A DNA stretch of 64,000 nt, taken from NCBI GenBank assembly GCA_951406725.2, contig OX597836.1:26970001-27034000 (forward strand). Reading direction: 5' to 3'. The DNA comes from Octopus vulgaris. Lineage: Eukaryota. The notes under the pieces were generated by a model, which searched no databases, was not told where the DNA came from, and saw only the letters and a list, made by a program, of their open reading frames with translations. Position 1 is the stretch's first letter. Every line of letters begins with the position of its first letter. Shown piece after piece: positions 3,687 through 64,000 of the stretch. The position numbers and the translations under genes were made by a program.

Positions 3687-4482
3687 ACCAGACAAAAAAT
3701 AAACAACTATGCGATACGGAAAGTTAACATACAAATGTGGAATAAATTTAATTCAAGATGAGGCAATTAGTGGACGGATAGTGGGCAGAGACGAAAGCAA
3801 ACAGGACGGCTGTGGGCAGGAGAAGAAACTGGAATGAATAAACAAACAAAATAAGGCTTTAGGACCGGCCGGATAGCAGATGGAAAATAGTCAGCCAAAG
3901 GTGAATGGAGAGGGAGACGAGAGAAAATGATGCAACCGTCAGGAAGTCGGCGTGAAAAGGAAGAAGATAAGACGATGACTACAGGTCACATTTCTGTAGG
4001 AGAAAGGATGACAATTTTTATTTCTTCAAATAAAATATTTGAACCAAGAAAAAAAAAAAAAGAGAAAAAAAAAAATTCACTGACAAATCTTCGTGCTGCA
4101 TCATGATGCAGCACGAAGCTTTGTCAGTGAACAGGTCGCGGTCTCAAAGCGACGAAAATATTTTCACAAATTAAATTTAAACGTTGAAGTGAATCTAGCG
4201 GTTTTGTGTGTTTCTTAAATGGCTTATAAACACCTTCCACGCAGCAAGTGTTTTATATATATATAGGGAGAGTTTACGAAAATAAACAAAAGACGAAGGC
4301 AGGTGGAGTACAAACAAACAAATGTATTAGTATAGCGCTCAGGAATAGAAAAAGTATTTTACGTTTCGAGCCTACGCTCTTCGACAGAAAGATACACAGA
4401 AAAAACAAGGAGAGAAACAAGGAGAAAAAAAATTTATGTAATATATGAGAAAAATACGAAAAAAATAAAGTGAAAACGAAAG

Positions 4483-6472: not shown

Positions 6473-7590
6473 TTATAAATCTAATATTTTCTTATCCTTC
6501 CTTAATACCGGTTCCCATATGCTACTCATATCTGCACTCGGTCTGCTTAGGAGGTTGTTGTGTCCTAGCATATGTGTTGCTTCTTTTAGTTTTCGTAATT
6601 TCCATTGGTGTTCTCTGTCTATTATTTTAACTTCATCCCACAGGGGGAGGTGGTCTCCATTTTTCCATACATGATCAGCTATACCCGATTTATCAATATC
6701 TCCTCTTGTCACAGCTTCGCGATTTTCCTCTACTCTTATTTTGAGGGGGCGGCATGTTTCGTCTTTGTATAACCTACCACAGCTGCATGGGATGGAATAC
6801 ACGCAGTTTTTTTGGTCACATTCACTTCTATTTGTGGCTTTACTCGAAGGAGATATTTGAGAAGTGTTGCATTACTCTTGAATTCTGTTCTGATGTCATA
6901 TCGGCCGCATATCTTTTGTATCTTTTCGGAGAGGCCTTTCACACAGGGTAGACAGATTGCGGACAGTTTATTGGTTTCGTCCTCTCTTTTCTTCATAATT
7001 GGAGTGGATAGTATGTTTTTGGGGGTAGTTGTTGCTTAATAGGTTCTTACAGGGCTTGATCATTTCTTCGTGGTGGGTATCACGATTGCTACTTATATTC
7101 TTTGCTCGATGTTTTAGACACTGAGAAATCACTGGGAACTGAAGTTGAGGTGGCGTCCAGGGAAGGTCGGCTTGCAGTATACGGATGTCCTGTGCGTGTT
7201 ATTAATACGTCCAGGAATGCTAGCTGATTGTCTTTTCCTTTTCCATTGTGAACTGCATTGTGAAATGCCTTTATTGAGTTCATGTGATCTAACAGCACTT
7301 GGACATCTTCCTGGTGGGACCAGAGTATAAAGGTGTCATCAACATATCACAGCCACAGGGTTGATTCACAATGGAAAAGGAAAAAGACAATCAGCTAGCA
7401 TTCCTCAATGTATTAATAACACGCACCAAGTATGGATTCAGGACATCCGTATACCGCAAGTCAACCCTTACTGGACGATACCTCAACTTCAATTCCCACC
7501 ATCCATACAGTGTAAAAAAAGAGATTGCTCAGTGCCTAAAACATCGAGCAAAAAATATAAGTAGCGATCGTGATACACACCAGCGAAGCC
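6473..7590 (-). mobile_element. Penelope-like element remnant: RT C-terminus plus GIY-YIG endonuclease, with an inverted duplicated RT segment at 7361-7590 (+)
   Basis: YSIPCSCGRLY..ET.RPL..R..E, SGIADHVW..DH..WDEVKIIDRE..W.LRKLKEA, LP.VKGLSEKI, EKEKDNQLAFL.V.ITR...TSVYRK.T.TGRYLNFNSHHP. Confidence 0.88.
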
Positions 7591-12501: not shown

Positions 12502-12664
12502 ATGAAGAAGTTTATAATTAATGACTCCATGGGGACTGACGACAAATCTCGTAAAAAACGCAAAAGAGCAATAATATGTCTGGTTATTTTCATAATCATT
12601 GTTCTTTCGTTAGGCCTAGGGATACTAGTTCACTACTTATTAAAGGATAAACCCCAACCGACTG
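12502..12664 (+). CDS. M1 aminopeptidase (APN-like) exon 1: cytoplasmic tail and signal-anchor TM helix
   Basis: MKKF..MGTDDKSRKKRKR-AIICLVIFIIIVLSLGLGILVHYLL: basic cluster then TM helix (type II topology). Donor G|gtaagt is phase 1, matching exon 2. Alternative ATG at 12529. Confidence 0.78.
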
Positions 12665-21029: not shown

Positions 21030-24000
21030 ACTAAATTCAGAAGAAGACATTTCCAATGAACAAAATTCAGCAGCTACAAAGGAAACCACTCAAACGACTG
21101 TTGAACACCCTGCATCAGTGAGTGAGAAGGGCACAGGAAAAATGTTTAAGCCTCGTTTATACAACAAAGATTATATAAAACTGGGATTCACATTTTCTGG
21201 AAATGAAAACAACCCTAGTCCCCTGTGTTTAGTTTGTGGGGATATACTTGCAAACGAAAGTATGGTGCCAAACAAAGTGTCATTTCAGTACTAGGCAGGG
21301 AAATTTGTCAACGAAGCCTGTGGAATACTTCATTGGACTTTCAAAATATCTAAAAAAAAAAAAGAAAAAAAGCAGGCTTCGATGTTCACAAAGAGAATGA
21401 AGACATCAGACAAAGCTCAAGGGACAAGTTACTTAGTTGCTCAAATAATTTCCAAAAACAAGGAACGATATAGTATTGCTGAAAGGAATTTTGCTGTGTG
21501 ATTGTTCGAACAATATTTGGACCCGAATTTGAGGCAGAAGTTAATAAAATTTCTCAGGCAGATAACACAATTGGAAGATGAATTCAAGATGTCTCATGAC
21601 ATTAACCCTTTCGTTACCAAACCGCCCCAAAAAAATTTTGGTTAATGTGACCAAACCGCCTAAAGCCGTCCGAATTTACCTATTCATATTTAAATGAGAA
21701 TATCAGAGCAAATCTCTTTAGTACATTCGTGAAAACACGTGATTATACTTCGTAAACAGTTCATCTACAGTTTTGTACAACGATCGACGTGTAATTTTAA
21801 TTCCCTGAATTTTGGGAGATTTTTTTCCACATTTTTTTCGGCATCGATTTCTCTTCAACTTTGAAAATGGATTGGAGTTTCATGTTATCAAGCATTGATT
21901 CTGAATTGGAAAATTTGTGAAGCAAATACTGGGTACTGTTGTGGATTTAGTTTTTATACAGGGAAACTAATGTTAGTCAGCATGGCTTAGGGTATGATGT
22001 GGTCTTGAAATTATTGTTTGAAGCGATCAATGCGGAAACAAACTTACGCAAAATGTAAACAAACACAAAATGGGGGTTCAAATTTCGGAAAATTTGTGAA
22101 GTAAATACTGGGTACTGCGTGGATTTAGTTTTTATACAGGGAAAATAATGTTAGTCAGCATGGCCTAGGGAACGATGTGGTCTGGAATTTATCACTTCCA
22201 TACTATAACCAGGGCCGTATATTATTTTTTGACCGATTTCTTTAGTTCGGTCAAACTTGCGGTGGATTCCAGTATTTCACTTTATTCCACATTTATGGTA
22301 CACCTGTTGTGCATTAAATTCAACTGATGATATAGTGATGTGCACAATTCTTCTTTATCAAAATTTTGTTGCATACCCATTTGAATATTAGCTGATGATT
22401 CATTTTCTATGGTGATGTTTAAACAAAATTTTAATACTTTTACCTTTTGCTCAATTTAAAATTTTAATATTTTTACCTTTTGCTCAATTTACCTGGATTT
22501 ACCTGTAATTAAAGTCACTTTGAGACAAAAGTTATGCAATAGAATTGATTAAGAACCCTTTCTTTAATTATGTTCCAAATATCACATTAATATGTTGATA
22601 AGTAAAAAAGTTACAGTTATTTAATGAAACAAGCCTAGATTCATGATTATTTTAGAATTTAATTGAAACTCATGAGGGGTGTATTTTGGTCAGAAATATA
22701 GTAACAAAAGGGCAAATGAAGAATATTATTGTAGTTATTATTGCAGTTAGACGAATCAACAGATGTCAGTGGGTTAAGCACAATTGATGGGTTTTATACG
22801 TTTTTATTCGTAATGACAGAATTATTGAGCAATTCTTGTGTTGTCTAGAACTTCTACTGAGAACTAGAACTGAAGACAATTTTCAAGCTTTAAATTTCTT
22901 CATGAAGGAAAATGATTTGTTATGGTCAAATTGTGTAGGAATATTCACAGATGGCGCACCCTCGATGGCAGGGTCAATAAAAGGTTTTATAAATTTAGCA
23001 AAAGAAGAGAATCCAAATATTATAAATTATTCATTGTTTTTTTGCGTGGAGAATCGTAAATTGTGCAAATTGTTGAAGATGAGTTACGAAGAATTAAAAA
23101 CGAAGTGGTTCAAATGGTCAATTACATCAAAAATAGACCTCTTAAATCAAGCTTATATGCTCATATTTGTGAAGAAGTGGGAACAAATTTCAAGAAACTT
23201 CTGCTACACACGAAGGTTCGTTGGCTTTCAAAAGGTTGTGTGATTTGTCGTGTATAAGAATTGAGAGAAATGATGCTTAAACTTTTTGAAGAACATCAAC
23301 AGAATAGGCGTAGGAGTGGCTGTGTGGTAAGAAGCTTGCTTACCAACCACATAGTTCTGGGTTCAGTCCCACTGCTTGGCACCTTGGGCAAGTGTCTTCT
23401 ACTATAGCCTCGGGCTGACCAAAACCATGTGAGTGGATTTGGTAGACGGAAACTGAAAGAAGCCCGTCGTATATACGTATATATATGTGTTTGTGTGTCT
23501 GTGTTTGTCCCCACAACATCGCTTGACAACCGATGCTGGTGTGTTTACGTCCCCGTAACTGAGCGGTTCGGCAAAAGAAACTGATAGAATAAGTACTAGG
23601 TTTACATAGAATAAGTACTGAGGTCGAGTTGCTCGACTAAAAGCGGTGCTCCAGCATGGCCACAGTCATACGACTAAAACAAGTAAAAGAGTAGAATGAA
23701 ATTCACAATCTGATTCAAGATGAACTTTGGTGCATCAGATTGGCAAATCTTTCGGACATATTTGTGACATTTGAATAAAATTAACACAGGTATACAGAGA
23801 AAAGCAGAAAATATCTTAACATCGGCTGATAAAATTTGCGCTATGAAAGACAAGATAATTCGGAAACGCAAAGTAAAAGAATGAAATTTTGAAATGTTTC
23901 CCAAAACTTGTGGGTGCGAGCTAAAATATGAGATCATCTCGTTAACTGTTGACCGTTTAACATTGGTTAGAGTAAAACTTGATTATTGTTTCCCAAATAT

Positions 24001-24811
24001 TAAAATCCAAAACTACGATTGGATCAGAAATCCATTTCTTGCAACTGTAACGATTGATTTTTCGCTTACCAAAAAAAAGAAAAACCTAGCTGAAATCAAG
24101 AATACTCGGTGTCTGTTATTGATTTATGAAAAAAAAAACGAATTTACAGATCTTTTGGCTTCGTGTTTCAAAGAAGCATCCAAACCTAGCTAAGAAAAAT
24201 AAATAGATAAAGCTTTACAAATTCTTTTGCAGTTTTCTACTCTTTTACTCTTTACTCTCTCTTTTACTTGTTTCAGTCATTTGGCTGCGGCCATGCTGGA
24301 GCACCGCCTTTAGTCGAGCAAATCGACCCCGGGACTTATTCTTTGTAAGCCCAGTACTTATTCTATCGGTCTCTTTTGCCGAACCGCTAAGTGACGGGGA
24401 CGTAAACACACCAGCATCGGTTGTCAAGCAATGCTAGGGGGACAAACACAGACACACAAATACATATATATATATACATATATACGACAGGCTTCTTTCA
24501 GTTTCCGTCTACCAAATCCACTCACAAGGCATTGGTCGGCCCGGGGCTATAGCAGAAGACACTTGCCCAAGATGCCACGCAGTGGGACTGAACCCGGAAC
24601 CATGTGGTTGGTTAGCAAGCTACTTACCACACAGCCACTCCTGCGCCTAGCACACATTTGCGAAGCATCTTTTTCAGCAACGCTAAACTTAAAGACATCG
24701 AAACGTGGAAACTTGAAAATGCTTAACAGTGAAATGCGAGTGTCATTATCTACCATACCATCTAGTATTAAAAATCTCTGTCCTTCTCATCAACCTCATG
24801 TATCTCTCTGA
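21030..24811 (+). mobile_element. Decayed hAT (Buster/Charlie; ZBED5/SCAND3/FAM200-like) transposase in intron 1
   Basis: BED finger RLYNKDYIKLGFT...PLCLVCGDILANESMVPNK, LQLDESTDV, CVGIFTDGAPSMAG..KGF, LLHTKVRWLSKG, WIRNPF, ICEASFS, QPHVSL*. Contains stops, frameshifts and three nested insertions. Confidence 0.9.
21606..22712 (+). mobile_element. Internally deleted piggyBac element nested in the hAT
   Basis: TTAA|CCCTTTCGTTAC...GTAACAAAAGGG TIRs. Remnant transposase FYTGK..VSQHGLGYDVV.KL (duplicated at about 21910 and 22090) and YYNQGRILFFDRF.SSVKLA. Confidence 0.82.
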
Positions 24812-25213: not shown

Positions 25214-25839
25214 TTTTTTATATTAATCGTTACACATATTTACAGATTATTATCGATAAATAATAACTCACATTTCTCTTGGAAATGTGTGTGTGTGTGT
25301 GTGTCTGCGTATGTTTGTGTTTGTCCTACCGTCACTGCTTGACAACTTAGCGGTTCATCAAAAAGAGGCTGATGGAATAAGTAATAGGTTTAAAAAAAAA
25401 AGCCCTGGAGTCGATTTGTTCGACTAAAATCCTTCAACGCGTTGCTCCAGCACGGCTGCAGTCAAATGCCTGAAACAAGTAAAAGAATCTGGCGATTTAA
25501 CTGACGCCAACAAAACCACCAGCAGGGTAGTAAACTTCAAGCATCGTTTTGAAAGTTATTGAATAAAATTATCATTAACAGGAATTTAATCCCATCTACC
25601 ACTCACCAAAAGCGCTTCTGTAAAATCTTGCTTGTTGATATCCTGTCGCTTACATTAAAAATAGTTTTTGTGCTGTTTCGTTCTACAGTTCACTTAGCGA
25701 CATGTCAAAGTTTATAAGTGTATCATCCACATGCTCATGTTGCTCATTAAATAATCCACTTTCTTGGGTTCTTCTTAGCTCATGTAGTGACGGAAGTTGC
25801 TAATTTTAACATCAAATTCCTGTTTCATAGGTTTGCAAT

Positions 25840-26721
25840 GCATCTTCTCAGAAAGATAGGAGTCAGGCAGTAGTGGCTAGTGGAGCCACCTCTATGAACA
25901 CACAAATAGTGAGCAGTGTTCCACAGGGCACTGTCTTGGGACCATTGCTTTTTATAGTGGCCCTCTCAGATATGCTCTCAAATGCCCGGATAGCCACCCT
26001 TGCAAGCTATGCAGATGATACGAAAGTCTCGCAGAAAATACAGAACCCCAGCGATGTTGCACACCTGCAGCAGGAGTTGGACTCAATTTACAGATGGGCT
26101 GAGGATAATAATATGCTGTTTAATGCTGAAATATTCCAAGCCCTGCGCTACCAGCATCCAAAACTGAATATGAAACTTACAGGGTACACTGGTAATCCAG
26201 AGAAGATTCAAAAAGTAGATCGTCTCTTTGCAACAGCTCAGCTACTGGGAAAGGTTGAAACTGTTAAGACTTTACTCCCCGGAGAGAAGACGGGAGAGGT
26301 ATGCAGCAATATATATCTGGAAGATCCCGGAAGGAATTGTGCCAAATTTTGGCATTGAAAGCTACACCAATGCCAGAACGGGACGACACTGCATAGTGCC
26401 AAAGGTCCCAGCAATGCCATCATGCTTCAGGATCATTTACTGCAACAGCCTGGGTTTCAAGGGCCTACAGCTTTTTAATATTCTCTCAAAGAGTCTGAGG
26501 AACTTGCACAAAGTAGATGTAGGGTTTTTTTAATCAAAGCTGGACCTCTTCCTGTTGAGAGTCCCAGATGAACCTACCTCATGGCAAGAGGTGCAAATGA
26601 GGGTAGCTATATCAAACTCCATGCTTCACCAAGTGCCACATATTAGAGGAGGCTCTTAGTAATAACAGTGTAGCAAAATGGCGGTGCATCAGCATGGCCA
26701 CAGCTCTGAGCTGAAACTAGA

Positions 26722-28419: not shown

Positions 28420-28990
28420 TCAGAGCCCTGAAATTTGCCAGAAGGGTATATCTCTGGTGACAGCAATAGGATAAATTGTATTTCTTGTTGAGGGATACTG
28501 CAGGTTATTAGAGGCTATGCAGCTTTTCGCAGAGGCGGAGCTGGCAGTTGGGGGCACCAGGTGAATATGATGGCGCTCTGTCGACAATAGTCCACTTGAT
28601 GCTGGGTATTTCATCTTGGAAATCACGGAGTCTCCAGAGAAAACGAGACAGGGAAGTAGAGGTCTCTCTATCCCTGGATCTGAACGTGTGCATATGTTGG
28701 GAGTATCTTCCTTTGAAATTATTAGCTGTCATACCCGTATAATGCCGAGTAATGCCATCGGATCGTGTAAGGGTGGCTCTGTATACTATGACTCTCGAGA
28801 GACAAGATCCTTCTAGAGGGCACATGGTGGGATTTCGGCGGTTGCAGACTGGGATTGGGGGTGGTGTGGGTGCATTTTTACGTCTGTTGATGCGTGCGAT
28901 GTTGTCTAAGCAGGAGTAGCTCACGACACCGTGTGACCTTCGTCCACCAATCGCAGCCCACCTCATGGTAATAACAATCAACTTCTGTCA
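28420..28990 (-). mobile_element. Penelope-like element remnant, Naiad-like GIY-YIG region
   Basis: VSYSCLDN..., CN.RNP..CPLEGSCL...IVYRA, YTGMTANNFKGRYSQH..TF, STSLSRFLW.L, IKWTIV...SY..G..NCQL.L.EK. Confidence 0.82.
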
Positions 28991-29729: not shown

Positions 29730-30084
29730 AGGAGGAGGTGGTCGAAGATCTTGCGGCGTTATTCCCAGTAAAATACACCCTGGAACTTGATCCTGATATG
29801 GGCTCAGGCATTATGTATGGTAACATGGAGTTACTTATGCGATGTACCAACAGCAGTTCTAAGGTAGTGCTTAATAGTATTGGAATTTTTGTGATTAAAG
29901 AGACTGTGGTGATTTCAGAAATCAGTTCCAACCAAATTTTGAAATTTATGATCACCGAGGAGGACCAAACGATAACTTTTCAACTTGTTAATTCTACTTT
30001 TCGAGCTGGTTTTAATTACACGATTTCATTGGATTATGATGCGAACATCAATAAGCAGTTTCAAGGAGTTTTCCAAACAGGACC
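29730..30084 (+). CDS. M1 aminopeptidase exon 2 (N-terminal beta-sandwich domain)
   Basis: Polypyrimidine tract, ttacag| acceptor, CC|gtaagt donor. PVKYTLELDP...GNMELLMRC...VVLNS...YTISLDYDANI...GVF. Confidence 0.85.
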
Positions 30085-41413: not shown

Positions 41414-41569
41414 AAATTTTGTCGCCACTGTCTTTCAGCCAAATTCGGCAGCAGAAGCTTTCCCTTGTTTTGATGATCCGACAATGAAGGCCATCTTTCA
41501 ATTAACAATCGTTCGAAGAGCTGACCTTATATCTCTCTCCAACACTGAGAGAAGCCACTCAGAAGACAG
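41414..41569 (+). CDS. M1 aminopeptidase exon 3
   Basis: tttcag| acceptor. NFVATVFQPNSAAEAFPCFDDPTMKAIFQLTIVR...LSN is the M1 AFPCFDEP motif. AG|gtaaat donor. Confidence 0.93.
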
Positions 41570-42623: not shown

Positions 42624-42741
42624 GAATCACAGCATGGTGGCAGATGTCTACAAGGAAACACCTAGAATGCCTACATATCTTGTAGCATTTGTAATTTGTG
42701 ATTATAAATACGTTGAGCAAGAAACCAATAACGGTTTGAAA
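42624..42741 (+). CDS. M1 aminopeptidase exon 4
   Basis: ttacag| acceptor. DVYKETPRMPTYLVAFVICDY is the M1 TP.MSTYL.AF motif. AAA|gtaagt donor. Confidence 0.93.
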
Positions 42742-44463: not shown

Positions 44464-44581
44464 ATTCGTTTTTATTCCCCAAAACCAACAGAAGATCTGA
44501 AGGCATTCGCTAGTTTTACCAAGAAGTCTCTGGAATTCTTCACTGATTACTTTGACATGAACTACACACTGCCAAAATTAG
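44464..44581 (+). CDS. M1 aminopeptidase exon 5
   Basis: tttcag| acceptor. IRFYSP...SLEFFTDYFDMNYTLPKL(D). G|gtaag donor. Confidence 0.93.
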
Positions 44582-45945: not shown

Positions 45946-46154
45946 ATGTTGTGCCTGTGAACATGTACCCTTTAGCTGGTATGGAAAACTGGGGTCTCAT
46001 TCTGTTGTCCGAATCTTTTCTGCCTGATGTGAAGGATGTTAATGGAAGGGTATTGGAGGTTGGCATCAGTGATACTAGTGGAACCAGTAGCACCATGCCA
46101 TTAGAACAACTTACAAAGAGTTTGAAACTGGTCTTGCATGAAGTCATTCATCAG
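45946..46154 (+). CDS. M1 aminopeptidase exon 6 (AGMEN and HEXXH motifs)
   Basis: gacag| acceptor. DVVPVNMYPLAGMENWGLIL...LVLHEVIHQ. CAG|gtttgg donor. Confidence 0.94.
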
Positions 46155-46243
46155 GTTTGGACATCATGAATTGATTGATTTATTGATTGATTGACAGATA
46201 AATAGAGAGAAATATAGAGAGGAAGATAGATAGATACATAAAT

Positions 46244-46298
<55 letters not shown>

Positions 46299-46373
46299 TA
46301 GATAGATAAATAAAGAGAGCGAAAGATAAATAGATAGGTAGAGAGAGAGAAAGATAGATAGATAGATAGAGAT

Positions 46374-46453
<80 letters not shown>

Positions 46454-46479
46454 AAAGATAGATAAATAGATAGATGGTT

Positions 46480-46518
<39 letters not shown>

Positions 46519-47153
46519 TAGATAGATAGACAAACAGACAGACAGACAGATAACTTGCAAGCAGCTTGGTGATCTAACTGGTTCTGGCACCATGTAAAAA
46601 GTACTGGTGTTAGTGCCACATAAATAGCACCCTGTATACTCTGTGAAGTGGTTGGCATGAGGAAGAACATCCAGCCAATTCAGACAAGCAGAGCTTGGCA
46701 TGGTTCTCTCGGCTTTGCCAGCTCTTGTCAAACCATCTGATCTATGCTAGCACGGAAAATGGTCATTAATTGATGATGATAAAGATGAGAATATTGTGGA
46801 GAAAAGCCTGACATTCATGATGTTGGTGAGCATCCAAAACATGTCGTGAAAGTGGAACCAGTAAGATAATTTCTTAGTAGTTGTTTGATGTAGACACCAA
46901 TCTGCTCTGTCAATGTAGCCAATCAAATGTGGTTAAGAAGTTCATTTCATAATCAGATGGTTTCAGGTTCAATCCCTGTATGCAACTCTTTGAGTTTTAA
47001 TGTCTTCAATTATGGACACAACTTCACCTTGTGTATAAAGTTTGTTCAACTCAGGTGCAACATTCATTGAGTAGAACAGGATTTGAACTCTGATAATTAA
47101 TTAATTAATTTCCCCAAATTTTTGTTTATTTTTGTTTTTTGCTGCTTTTACAG

Positions 47154-47267
47154 TGGATTGGTAATGTGGTGACCCCCAATAACTGGAAGAACAACTGGTT
47201 AATTGAAGGATTGACTGAGTACCTCACCTTGCGTTATATCTACAAGCTTGACGACCGTTTCTTAAAG
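47154..47267 (+). CDS. M1 aminopeptidase exon 7 (third Zn ligand)
   Basis: WIGNVVTPNNWKNNWLIEGLTEY places E exactly 18 residues after HEVIH. 114 nt, GT-AG boundaries. Confidence 0.95.
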
Positions 47268-47549
47268 GTATTCCACACTTTATTCTACTTGAGTCTTTAT
47301 ATAGGGAGATGGGTGTCTTCAGATGAATTTGTTGTGTTGAGGACAGCTGAGAGAATAAACTATTGGCCAGCTGCCTCATATTTTTCATGAGATCAAATCT
47401 GTTGGCAGCATTTCATTCTGTTCCTGGCCAGAACAGCCTTGACTCAGTTAGCTGTGTGCATATTGTCATACTTATCATCGTCATCGTCGTGGTCGTTGTG
47501 GTCATTGTCATCATCGTCGTCGTCGTCACCACCATCGTCGTCATCGTCG

Positions 47550-47601
<52 letters not shown>

Positions 47602-47619
47602 AATAATAATAATAATAAT

Positions 47620-48036
47620 AAATGCCCTGATGCAGTACCAGGCAGTGGCTCTCATGGCTTCTGATCTTAACTGACAGGAAGTGTTATCATGTACATTGTT
47701 TTGTCTTGGTATAAAAGATGGGCTACAGCAGATATTCTGCTCAATACTACAGATTTGCTTGTCAGTTGTTTGATCTTAACCAGACGAGCATGTCCCTTAG
47801 TGGCTGACGATATGTGCATCTCTGATCATGAGCAGAAGTAGTGGAGGAGCATCATAGCCATGTGTTGAGAGGGATTCTTTGGGGTTTGAATAATTCACCT
47901 CTGGAGAAATGGGTGTTTCGTTCAACATTCTTAAACAACCCTTATTCAGGGACCTTTTGAACAGGATGGGTTACTCGACTAGAAGAAAATTCTAACTGGG
48001 CCCCACCTGCAAGGTCATGTGATGTTTATCTTGATA
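47620..48036. mobile_element. Repeat associated with (AAT)n tracts (longer copy at 50815-51360)
   Basis: Two high-identity copies of cagtaccaggcagtggctctcatggcttctgatcttaactg..., each abutting (AAT)n. Confidence 0.75.
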
Positions 48037-48234
48037 TTTTTCTGTAAGAACAGCCATTTTGGGGGAGGGGATGAGTTGATTACATTGACTCCAATATTTC
48101 ACTGGTACTTAATTTATTGACTCCGAAAGGATGAAAGGCAAAGGTGACCTCAGCAGAATTCGAACTCAGAACAGTGGCTGACGAAATACCGCAAAGCATT
48201 TTGCCCAGCATGCTAATGATTCTGCCAGCTTGCC

Positions 48235-48268
<34 letters not shown>

Positions 48269-48347
48269 GTTTCTTTATTTGCCACAAGGTCAATATATGA
48301 GAGGACATTAAAATAACCCAATTTGTATTTGCCGTTTATTTCTATAG

Positions 48348-48446
48348 AACAAAGAAGATTTGGACTTCATAAGATTAAGAGCTATGTTTGATGTCCATCT
48401 TGTTCCTGTCAATGAATTAGCTTTCACCCAAGAGATAAACATACAA
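48348..48446 (+). CDS. M1 aminopeptidase exon 8 (shortened; catalytic-Tyr position is Asn)
   Basis: tctatag| acceptor, CAA|gtgagt donor, phases 0/0. NKEDLDFIRLRAMFDVHLVPVNELAFTQEINIQ. Confidence 0.75.
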
Positions 48447-48494
48447 GTGAGTAACAACTCTATTTATTATCTTTTATGTTTTGTTTCAGCCATT

Positions 48495-49165
48495 GGGCTG
48501 TGGTGGTACTGGGGTACTGTGGTGATGCTGGGGTACTGTGGTAATGCTGGAGTACTGCGGTGATGCTGGGGTACTGTCATGATGTTGGGGTACAGTGGTG
48601 ATGCTGGGGTACTATGGTGATGCTGGGGTACTGTCATGATGTTGGGGTACAGTGGTGATGCTGGGGTATTGTGGTGATGCTGGGGTACTGTCTTGATGTT
48701 AGGGTACAGTGGTGATGCTGGGGTACTGTGGTACTGCTGGGATACTGTGGTAATGCTGGGGTACTGTGGTGATGCTGGGGTACTGTGGTGATGCTGGGGT
48801 ACTGTGGTGATGCTGGGGTACTGTGGTGATGCTGGGGTACTGTCTTGATGCTGGGGTACTGTGGTGATGCTGGGGTACTGTGGTGATGCTGGGGTACTGT
48901 GGTAATGCTGGGGTACTGTGGTGATGCTGGGGTACTGTGGTGATGCAGGGGTACTGTGGTGATACTGGGGTACTGTGGTGATGCAGGGGTACTGTGGTGA
49001 TGCTGGGGTACTGTCTTGATGCTGGGGTACTGTGGTGATGCTGGGGTACTGTGGTGATGCTGGGGTACTGTGGTGGTGCTGGGGTACTGTGGTGGTGCTG
49101 GGGTACTGTGGTGGTACTGGGGTACTGGGGTAATGCTGGGGTACTGTGGTGATGCTGGGGTACTA
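48495..49165 (+). repeat. 19-bp minisatellite (gctggggtactgtggtgat), about 35 copies
   Basis: Directly visible tandem array. Confidence 0.95.
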
Positions 49166-49395
49166 TAGTAACTTGCTACTCTTGTGAGGAGTGTGTCTGG
49201 ACATTTAGCAGGATTAAAGACATGTTGAAGGATGGATGAACTTCTTGTGGGTCAATAATGGCCATCCAGTTAAAAAAGGGCAATGGCAAACCAGTCCAAG
49301 AAACCACTATGAGAAAGTCAGAACAAATTAATGCTATGGCTAAATATTTTCTATACAGTTTAATATCTAAAATAATTTCTTTCTTCATATTTCAG

Positions 49396-49461
49396 GGACC
49401 TTTGGCGTTTTTAATTTTGGAAGAAATTGTTGGAGAAGAGAAACTGAAAGAAGGCATCAGG
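49396..49461 (+). CDS. M1 aminopeptidase exon 9
   Basis: tttcag| GPLAFLILEEIVGEEKLKEGIR |gtaaac, 66 nt; corresponds to the usual GASVL.ML...LG...F..GL segment. Confidence 0.88.
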
Positions 49462-51638: not shown

Positions 51639-51784
51639 TTTATGGAGAGAAAAGATCTATCAGTGAAAGAAATAATGAAACGATGGACAAGTCAAGAAAA
51701 TTACCCTCTTGTTACTGTGAGTGGGATTAATTCAGGACAAACTGTACACGTCACGCAGGAGGCATTTTCATATGTAGAAGATCA
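51639..51784 (+). CDS. M1 aminopeptidase exon 11
   Basis: ttttag| LSVKEIMKRWTSQENYPLVTV...VTQEAF is the M1 IM..WT.Q.G.P..TV motif. CA|gtaagt donor. Confidence 0.92.
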
Positions 51785-56852: not shown

Positions 56853-56932
56853 TGGTAAATGGATCATCCCATTCACTTTGTCTGATTCTGAAAACAGGAC
56901 CGGAAGACATTTCTATCTCCAACCTGAAACCA
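56853..56932 (+). CDS. M1 aminopeptidase exon 12
   Basis: ttttag| (H)GKWIIPFTL...FYLQPET, the M1 W.IP motif. A|gtaag donor; phases 2 and 1 fit the neighbours. Confidence 0.85.
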
Positions 56933-57755: not shown

Positions 57756-57877
57756 GTGCAGACATCTCTCTGAATAAACCACAATGGTACATTGCCAATA
57801 ACCACGGCTTCTATCGTGTTAACTATGACACCACCAACTGGCAGAACCTCATACACCAGCTCATGCAAGATCACACG
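57756..57877 (+). CDS. M1 aminopeptidase exon 13 (start of ERAP1-like C-terminal domain)
   Basis: tttcag| WYIANNHGFYRVNYDTTNWQNLIHQL..DHT |gtcagt. Confidence 0.94.
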
Positions 57878-59412: not shown

Positions 59413-59468
59413 GCCATCACGCCGGTCCAGAGAACCAATCTTATATCTGATTCATGGGCCCTGGTCAA
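59413..59468 (+). CDS. M1 aminopeptidase exon 14
   Basis: tttcag| AITPVQRTNLISDSWALVK |gtaagt, 56 nt; the I...NR..LI.D...LA motif. Confidence 0.9.
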
Positions 59469-61107: not shown

Positions 61108-61255
61108 ATCCAATAAGTTAGATGTGAACATCTTCCTGAGTCTTCTTGACTATATGAACAAAGAAACTGAGTACTTACCCTGGATGGCTTTCTTTGGGGC
61201 CACTTCTGAACTCTTCAGTTACTCAAGCCAATCTGAGAATCTTCCCACTTATTTG
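61108..61255 (+). CDS. M1 aminopeptidase exon 15
   Basis: ttacag| SNKLDVNIFLSLLDYMNKETEYLPW...TYL |gtatg, 148 nt. Confidence 0.92.
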
Positions 61256-61949: not shown

Positions 61950-62026
61950 TATTTCTTCCAAGAAAAGATTAAAAATATTTACCAAAAAGTGGCTTGGATT
62001 GATCACGGCTTGAGTTTGAATGACAG
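61950..62026 (+). CDS. M1 aminopeptidase exon 16
   Basis: tttacag| YFFQEKIKNIYQKVAWIDHGLSLND AG|gtaag. Confidence 0.87.
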
Positions 62027-63193: not shown

Positions 63194-63304
63194 AATGCTC
63201 CAGAATGGAGTCATCAATGAAGCTTGTAGGATGGAACATCCTTCCTGTTTATCAAAAGCCAATCATCTATTCAAAAGATGGAAGACACATCCTAAAGAAA
63301 ACAA
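63194..63304 (+). CDS. M1 aminopeptidase exon 17 (gene continues beyond the window)
   Basis: ttctag| MLQNGVINEACRMEHPSCLSKANHLFKRWKTHPKEN AA|gtgagt, 111 nt, with the conserved AC......C...A...F..W pattern. Confidence 0.92.
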
Positions 63305-63307
63305 GTG

Positions 63308-63356
<49 letters not shown>

Positions 63357-63734
63357 TATTATTATTGTCATTATCATTATTTATTATTATCATCATCATT
63401 GTCATCATTATCATCATCATTATCATTTAGGCGGTGAGCTGGCAGAATCGTTAGCACGCCGGGCAAAATGCTTAACAGTATTTCATCTGTTGCTACGTTC
63501 TGAGTTCAAATTCCGCCAAGGTCAACTTTGCCTTTCACCCTTTCGGGGTCAATAACTTAAGTACCAGTTGAATCTTGGGGGGGGGGGTCAATGCAATCAA
63601 TTTACCCCACTCTCCTGAAATTACTTTATATTATTTTCCATCTTACTATTAGTTTTGTTTTCATTTTGAAAAGTCAAAATATATTTTGTGGTTTATTATT
63701 GTTTAGTGCACCTGTGCTGGTGACACATAAAGAA

Positions 63735-64000
63735 CACCTTTGGAGGCTTCATGGAGGCAAAATGGTTGAGTTCTTTTTGAGTGTTGGGCCTCATGGAGGC
63801 AATGACTGTGACCTTTGGAATTATGTTGGCCTCACGGAGGCAAAGTGACTGAGTTCCTTTTGAGCACAGGGTGTCATGGAGGCAAAGTGGCTGAGTTCTT
63901 TTGAGTGTTGGGCCTCACAAAAACAATGACTGTGACCTTCAGAATTATGTTGGCCTCACAGAGGCAAAGTAGCTGAGTTCCAGCAAGCACTGGGCCTCAT
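63735..64000 (+). repeat. ~40-bp tandem repeat related to the RTE ORF end
   Basis: Units gttgggcctca(t/c)ggaggcaaagtgactgagttccttttgagt resemble 52291-52330 tgttgggcctcacagaggcaatgac. Confidence 0.7.

Follow-up and report, generated by a model that had tools for sequence, protein, structure and literature searches.

The stretch examined here is a 64,000-nucleotide piece of the Octopus vulgaris genome (assembly GCA_951406725.2, contig OX597836.1, positions 26,970,001 to 27,034,000, forward strand; hereafter the window), and it carries the first 17 exons of a gene of the M1 aminopeptidase family. The original prediction had described these exons as phase-compatible and free of stops, and rebuilding them from window 12502-63304 gave the same picture: all splice sites are GT-AG, the phases agree, and the 734 codons contain no stop. 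The window exons match the Pfam domains Peptidase_M1_N (PF17900), Peptidase_M1 (PF01433), and ERAP1_C (PF11838). Exon 17 is far from the end of the gene. When the 200 kb downstream of the window were fetched and mapped for exons (L002 coordinates refer to that downstream stretch), 24 further exons followed, and the gene was found to run ~43 kb beyond the window. The full model, built from the window and the downstream genome, has 41 exons, all GT-AG, and encodes 1,796 amino acids (aa) without an internal stop. Its product consists of an N-terminal membrane anchor, a degenerate M1 module lacking the catalytic Tyr of the family (module A, exons 2-21), and a canonical M1 module (module B, exons 22-41). 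The features of the gene are as follows.

12502-12664, plus strand: exon 1; carries the start codon, a short basic tail on the cytosolic side, and a type II transmembrane anchor (aa ~23-46)
29730-30084, plus strand: exon 2; module A domain I, PF17900 at E 3.4e-08
41414-41569, plus strand: exon 3; TVFQP with Q181 (amine-binding Glu/Gln kept), conserved Arg of ARKAFPC lost
42624-42741, plus strand: exon 4 of the model
44464-44581, plus strand: exon 5 of the model
45946-46154, plus strand: exon 6; AGMEN (E317), LSE, 18-residue insertion, HEVIH (H368, E369, H372)
47154-47267, plus strand: exon 7; WLIEG with third zinc ligand E391, PF01433 at E 1.4e-06
48348-48446, plus strand: exon 8; ends in FTQEINIQ, contigs of two runs join it to exons 7 and 9
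48438-48440, plus strand: codon AAC, Asn442, at the catalytic Tyr position
49396-49461, plus strand: exon 9 of the model, with contig junction
49676-49741, plus strand: exon 10 of the model
51639-51784, plus strand: exon 11; domain II ends and domain III begins here
56853-56932, plus strand: exon 12 of the model
57756-57877, plus strand: exon 13; domain III/IV boundary, PF11838 at E 1.1e-05
59413-59468, plus strand: exon 14 of the model
61108-61255, plus strand: exon 15 of the model, Pfam scan
61950-62026, plus strand: exon 16 of the model
63194-63304, plus strand: exon 17; last exon in the window, to aa 734
63305-64000, plus strand: start of intron 17; the gene continues past the window end
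C23:27035720-27041130, outside the window, plus strand: exons 18-21; remainder of module A domain IV
C23:27041948-27076722, outside the window, plus strand: exons 22-41; basic linker, canonical module B, stop codon

Two M1 modules in a single gene

The 41-exon product is identical to the O. sinensis protein XP_029650203.1 at 1772 of 1798 aligned positions, and a query with exon 6 returned a 1,746-aa protein of O. sinensis and a 1,692-aa protein of O. bimaculoides. The RefSeq models of these two species are single chains of 1,692-1,798 aa in which each Pfam domain is present twice; the double-length octopus protein is already in RefSeq under automatic names. Two homologous units of catalytic type thus stand in one open reading frame, the architecture of ACE, carboxypeptidase D (CPD), and polyserases. 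Modules A and B share 239 of 803 aligned residues, and the phases of the introns inside them match in order (19/19); 11 of these introns coincide in alignment column, and the other 8 are offset by 1-10 columns. Since shared introns are possibly ancestral to the subfamily, they are evidence of homology and not of the date of duplication. A hydropathy scan of the full-length orthologue P0004 revealed a single membrane segment, at the N-terminus, so module B has no anchor of its own. This topology, together with 18 glycosylation sequons in the protein, suggests that a two-module ectodomain is held outside the cell or in the lumen by the type II anchor.

Transcript evidence was taken from Logan contigs, for which 21 runs were listed and 14 were taken as RNA. 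The 817-nt intron between the modules (GT..AG, L002:7130 joined to 7948) is spliced in contigs of all four of four runs, from four studies. A 5,631-nt contig of run X9 (depth 29.5) carries exon 8 and exons 21-22 collinearly, with exon 8 at position 4238 against 4235 predicted from exon 21, and with flanks of 2,761 nt upstream (2,598 needed) and 2,337 nt downstream (2,260 needed). Because the position of exon 8 matches the prediction, this contig extends from exon 8 through exon 22, and its length agrees with that of the complete coding sequence. The 3-nt offset fits the extra Glu of the other Octopus proteins: in exon 11 (51639-51784), O. sinensis and O. bimaculoides have one Glu more than the genome near aa 535, a difference that would fit an indel polymorphism, the X9 contig being 3 nt longer between exons 8 and 21. 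Furthermore, the related Logan clusters P0009 (1,827 aa) and P0010 (1,820 aa) are whole frames on 5.9-7.0-kb contigs. At contig level, both modules therefore lie on one spliced transcript. A search for octopus expression gave no listing tied to this gene.

Could the locus instead hold two adjacent genes, a Tyr-less membrane pseudo-peptidase and another M1 gene, that only read-through or annotation connects? The O. vulgaris annotation, which divides the locus into four separate records, would agree with such an arrangement, and contigs are no proof of single molecules. However, no stop follows exon 21, the A/B junction is in frame and spliced in all four runs, module B is without its own anchor, and Argonauta has the same fused frame, as do P0009/P0010 at about 40% identity. 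In addition, the X9 contig crosses one of the splits between the annotation records, and the annotation appears to divide the locus wrongly. We consider two separate genes highly improbable.

The active site of module A

Module A retains an intact zinc motif, HEVIH at 46137-46151 (H368, E369, and H372), with E391 19 residues after the second His. All of the motifs quoted in the original prediction are present: HEVIH-X18-E; AGMEN at 45975-45989 (aa 314-318), in which M, E, and N are kept and the first position is A; LSE at 46005-46013; WLIEG at 47196-47210; TVFQP at 41427-41441; and FTQEINIQ, which with the following GP straddles the exon 8/9 junction. For comparison, 228 proteins were cut into 331 modules, of which the 308 spanning the catalytic core were aligned and 269 were left after removal of near-duplicates. 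The amine-binding residues E317, Q181, and E391 are also kept in module A. The distal Glu/Gln that binds the free amino terminus is a named M1 feature (PMC6222927), and its column, occupied by Q181 in module A, holds Glu in 172 and Gln in 89 of the 308 modules.

Codon 48438-48440 is AAC (N442) and aligns to the column of the M1 catalytic Tyr, which we take to be Tyr477 in aminopeptidase N (APN), as numbered in the original prediction. Asn also stands at this position in O. sinensis and O. bimaculoides. Among the 269 modules, 250 have an intact HExxH and Glu, and Tyr is present in 239 of these 250; among the 11 Tyr-less modules are both Octopus A modules and at least two that are alignment gaps. 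The predicted 49-residue spacing between MEN and HEXXH was likewise recovered and is the longest among 229 modules measured, 189 of which have 31 residues.

Exon 8 was checked in four runs (X9, X10, X20, and X19), X19 having no coverage of it. Contigs of X9 and X10, from two studies, cover exon 8 in spliced form, with loose ends that match the last bases of exon 7 and the first of exon 9. X20 contains the exon as genomic sequence. AAC is unchanged in all three. By codon logic, A-to-I editing can turn AAC only into Asp, Ser, and Gly codons, so that it cannot restore Tyr, as the original prediction had argued. An alternative Tyr-bearing exon 8 was also sought. Introns 7 and 8 contain 81 and 6 open phase-0 candidates, of which 7 and 2 have a Tyr near the end, and none resembles an M1 exon; tblastn with Tyr-bearing segments gave a best match of E 0.06.

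As a separate observation, intron 8 contains a 19-bp minisatellite (48498-49164; 35 copies, 89% matches) that begins ~50 bases after the exon with the Tyr loss. A phage search with its repeat gave no match, which is uninformative.

The substitution at the Tyr position is not an isolated change. With 67 columns conserved in at least 90% of 228 canonical modules as reference, Octopus module A keeps 51, module A of P0009/P0010 keeps 55, and the B modules keep 65-67, where the 5th percentile of the canonical modules is 59. The losses in module A are concentrated around the Tyr helix, and the module is also without a near-invariant Lys (column 406), Asp (377), and Arg (152). The proposal of a remodelled active site thus stands with respect to Tyr. 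In contrast, AGMEN, LSE, and WLIEG, which had been taken as further signs of remodelling, are weak evidence, because many modules whose catalytic residues are intact show variants of this kind: among the 239 modules with intact zinc ligands and Tyr, the second GAMEN position is G in 34, the N of WLNEG is missing in 61, and the R of YRE is missing in 76.

The effect of changing this Tyr is known from related enzymes. A Tyr-to-Phe mutant of ERAP1 has a 200-fold lower rate, according to the excerpted text of PMC5545687, which names Tyr438 but numbers the mutant 433, and the corresponding change in PSA lowers kcat 1000-fold, according to an excerpt of bioRxiv 10.1101/2023.05.30.542994.

Module A could nevertheless still be an enzyme, slow or with altered chemistry or specificity, in which Y311, the 18-residue insertion, or Asn442 acting via water replaces Tyr, and the chain would then have two catalytic sites, as in ACE or in domains I and II of CPD. 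The retention of all three zinc ligands, of the general base E369, and of the amine-binding E317 and Q181 would be expected of such an enzyme, and domain II of module A is 92% identical to that of O. bimaculoides. The residual activity of the ERAP1 mutant and the His that thermolysin has at the equivalent site, taken up below, point the same way. On the other hand, modules with intact zinc ligands have kept Tyr almost throughout (239/250), and module A has also lost the neighbouring near-invariant Lys, Asp, and Arg columns. Moreover, domain II of module A is not specially conserved: across deep splits it is no more conserved than the other domains of the module, and its identity to P0009 is 37% vs 57% for module B. 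An active module A is thus rather unlikely.

Predicted structure of module A and the linker

AlphaFold2 was run on P0005 (O. vulgaris CAI9739506.1) with 91 single-module relatives. Where the window departs from O. sinensis, P0005 agrees with the window, as judged by eye. This record has a different N-terminus, is without part of exon 5, and ends at aa 736, so that the last 165 residues of domain IV lie outside the model. The predicted structure has a normal M1 fold, with a predicted local distance difference test (pLDDT) score of 83.2 and a predicted template modelling score of 0.83, and Foldseek matched it to ERAP1, IRAP, and ERAP2 at E about 1e-50. The Pfam matches (PF17900, PF01433, PF11838) and the model, to aa ~736, both indicate the four-domain M1 fold. 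N442 (P0005 residue 462) is predicted to lie in the first turn of a helix, at the site expected for Tyr, and the 18-residue insertion is modelled as a low-confidence loop (pLDDT <50). With a catalytic residue lost and the fold kept, module A would qualify as a pseudopeptidase by this comparison of sequence and model. A complex between the domains IV of the two modules, predicted without alignment, gave a median of 0.33 vs a mark of 0.34.

Exon 19 (L002:3650-3805) has the same length and place as 52 residues of module A domain IV that are missing from O. sinensis isoform X2, which suggests in-frame skipping of this exon.

At the A/B boundary (exon 21/22, L002:7130/7948), a run of basic residues forms a lysine-rich linker (aa ~907-912) in three Octopus species and Argonauta. 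If the chain were cut there, module A could be a membrane-bound pro-part or folding helper and module B would be freed in soluble form. Precedents would be the lactase-phlorizin hydrolase (LPH) profragment, described as an intramolecular chaperone in the excerpted text of PMC6412902, and the processing of polyserase-1 in that of PMC1435904. However, P0010 has no such basic run and P0009 only a weak one, the sequence does not form an R-x-K/R-R site, and a zinc site is not obviously something that a pure pro-part would be expected to retain. Such a role is doubtful, and we hold it to be quite unlikely.

Module B

Module B contains TTQFEP, GAMEN (1187-1191), YRE, HELAH-X18-E (H1223/E1224/H1227 and E1246), WLNEG, and FDDISYNKG with Y1309. 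It keeps 67 of the 67 highly conserved columns, passes every sequence test for an active M1 enzyme, and matches aminopeptidase N chains at E about 1e-167. Judged by these features, module B is likely to do the cutting, trimming N-terminal residues like APN. Because module B is in the same chain, an assay of the whole protein with aminoacyl-7-amino-4-methylcoumarin (AMC) substrates would probably show activity and mislead about module A.

Exon 6 had no genomic match besides itself, with no extra or processed copy of module A, and no further M1 match was found in the 157 kb after the gene. Exon 27 of module B matched four other M1 exons (60-69% identity), at C3:153545169, C9:22092470, C18:57064703, and C18:56975578. 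The two on C18 are ~89 kb apart on one strand and could belong to another tandem or double-module gene.

Relatives and evolution of the two modules

Orthologues of module A were found in three Octopus species, Argonauta, and the clusters P0009 and P0010, and repeated searches gave only these. In both module trees, P0009/P0010 are sister to octopods, and they likely come from other cephalopods. Their module A keeps the Tyr and the normal 31-residue spacing. Argonauta module A is without Tyr, the segment there being shortened; this record begins after HEXXH. Since P0009/P0010 keep Tyr, its loss, as read from these sequences, likely happened in octopods.

Trees were built with FastTree (261 rows) and with IQ-TREE in quick mode (41 rows, and 35 rows after dropping six, three of them long-branch), leaving out gappy modules and Argonauta A. 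The module A clade and the module B clade are each fully supported. In the 35-row tree, the stem of A is 0.98 vs 0.39 for B, and the branch to Octopus is 0.67 vs 0.45. These long branches, and the 52 residues dropped in O. sinensis isoform X2, might be read as signs that module A is a decaying relic, persisting only through its place between the anchor and module B. Within Octopus, however, module A is no faster than module B: the identity to O. bimaculoides is 750/831 (90%) for A and 712/783 (91%) for B, and the Octopus tip lengths are 0.053/0.037 vs 0.030/0.048 (35-row tree). Module A has also preserved its reading frame, its fold, and all 19 introns. A relic is therefore very unlikely. Module A appears to be maintained, its protein identity, equal to that of B within Octopus, and its intact frame being possible signs of selection.

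Multi-module M1 proteins elsewhere

Two or three M1 modules per predicted chain are also present in Ruditapes (XP_060551724.1), Mercenaria (XP_053377176.1), Plakobranchus (GFO47453.1), and Brachionus (RNA03939.1), and in three-module hymenopteran proteins. The trees place the double modules of venerid clams, Plakobranchus, Brachionus, Patiria, and Acanthaster each with partners from the same lineage, a pattern that speaks for several independent duplication events. Unlike in the octopus chain, both modules are canonical in Ruditapes, Mercenaria, Plakobranchus, and Brachionus, whose chains are known here from predicted proteins alone. At least one degenerate module was found in 15 of 55 proteins with two or more scored modules vs 13 of 146 with one, in a sample that is biased by summed scores and in which some cases are possibly gene-model or alignment errors. 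Other predicted M1 proteins with three or more modules (P0012, P0013, P0015, P0016, P0089, and others), from hymenopteran and other sources, include several degenerate modules. A search of open-access literature, at the level of titles and abstract openings, found nothing relevant on tandem M1 proteins or on this octopus gene.

Other features of the window

The window also contains remnants that presumably derive from mobile elements. At 126-2006 on the minus strand, interrupted frames carry helicase-like motifs, namely a GGTGKT P-loop followed by Pif1-like stretches, and we take them to be a likely Helitron remnant. In intron 1, fragmented transposase-like frames at ~21050-24800, broken up by other repeats, resemble what we assume to be a hAT/ZBED-type DNA transposase. 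Reverse-transcriptase-like (YADD motif) and GIY-YIG-like fragments at 25831-26358 (plus strand), 28508-28987 (minus strand), and 6473-6871 (minus strand) are presumably LINE and Penelope remnants.

Discussion

The octopus protein shares the type II anchor, the four-domain fold, and HEXXH-X18-E with the membrane-anchored four-domain enzymes of MEROPS family M1, aminopeptidase N, ERAP1, and IRAP, and module A matches ERAP1 at E 2e-63 by sequence. It differs from them in having two complete modules, the first of which is without Tyr and has an 18-residue insertion; the M1 proteins in the Protein Data Bank (PDB) are single-module in length among the matches listed. Within the M1 fold, the closest counterparts of module A are Tma108 and MNP-1, both presumed to have a non-catalytic role. 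As far as the excerpted sources go, yeast Tma108 keeps HExxH-x18-E and binds nascent N-termini in its pocket, and MNP-1 of C. elegans is presumed inactive (PMC10368266). Unlike module A, both are described there as single-module proteins without fusion to an active M1 module, and MNP-1 is without zinc ligands.

The arrangement of the chain as a whole resembles that of CPD, a membrane metallopeptidase of family M14 with tandem catalytic units, one of them inactive. CPD domain III is inactive yet required for full function in Drosophila, according to the text excerpted from PMC11266112. CPD differs in its family and fold and is a type I membrane protein, and its domain III has lost nearly all active-site residues, whereas octopus module A keeps the zinc ligands and the general base. 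Polyserases and LPH, according to excerpted text on polyserase-2 and LPH, and likewise hexokinase I/III, also have tandem duplicated units, some of them dead, but their folds are unrelated and they serve as analogy only. Since active and inactive tandem domains are well known in other families, the surprise of the octopus protein is limited. Sucrase-isomaltase is another protein with tandem duplicated enzyme units.

The explanation that we favour, at a probability of roughly 60%, is that an active ectopeptidase, module B, is carried on a near-dead but maintained partner, module A. In one 1,796-residue chain of membrane anchor, module A, and module B, B would cut, and A would be almost inactive and kept as a folded, probably zinc-binding partner. 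Without Tyr, module A would stabilise the transition state poorly, and what is known of the family suggests a rate lower by two to three orders of magnitude. Less firmly, module A might act as a stalk or scaffold by which module B is anchored, folded, and positioned, and the kept E317, Q181, and E391 may hold peptide N-termini without cutting them. As for history, a duplication before octopods split from the P0009/P0010 lineage would have given A and B; A would then have evolved fast, first losing residues around the Tyr helix and, in octopods, Tyr itself. The original prediction had envisaged a maintained, membrane-anchored pseudo-peptidase or an enzyme whose chemistry is altered, such as a receptor that binds peptides. 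The loss of Tyr is indeed transcribed and shared by orthologues, and the module appears maintained. A stand-alone pseudo-peptidase or receptor is not supported, because the same chain carries the canonical module B.

Several points weigh against this explanation. The ERAP1 Tyr mutant keeps some activity (excerpt of PMC5545687), and thermolysin, according to the excerpted source, has His at the equivalent site, so that substitute donors exist. The 40 residues before N442 were modelled with a pLDDT of only 48-62. The X20 DNA contig has, in exon 8 alone, five amino-acid-changing and three silent differences by hand count, which suggests relaxed constraint near the lost Tyr. A sisterhood of A and B has a support of 66 in the 35-row tree and was not recovered in the FastTree tree, so a cephalopod-specific duplication is neither shown nor rejected. 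The RNA status of the 14 runs is the tool's guess, and Logan contigs are assembly paths rather than single molecules, so that isoforms with only A or only B may exist; the four annotation records belong here too. Finally, the data fit either a scaffold or a peptide-binding role of module A.

A bolder form of the second role is that module A is a zinc-holding peptide-capture domain, which would bind the free N-termini of dietary, neuro-, or immune peptides uncut and thereby feed or regulate the active module B. We regard this as a tentative, minority possibility. If it were true, the protein would be an M1 enzyme-pseudoenzyme pair in one chain, whose disarming is traceable stepwise across cephalopods, and it would sit in an undescribed, repeatedly evolved class of invertebrate multi-module M1 proteins.

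Under the favoured explanation of an active module B on a near-dead partner, the picture of this locus is corrected from a dead enzyme to a single enzyme of which one half is disarmed. Single canonical modules, P0009/P0010 (neighbours lost but Tyr present), and Argonauta and Octopus (Tyr gone) would then form a natural series for the origin of a pseudoenzyme, in which the intact module B may serve as an internal control at each stage. Beyond cephalopods, multi-module M1 proteins appear to be a recurrent architecture of invertebrates.

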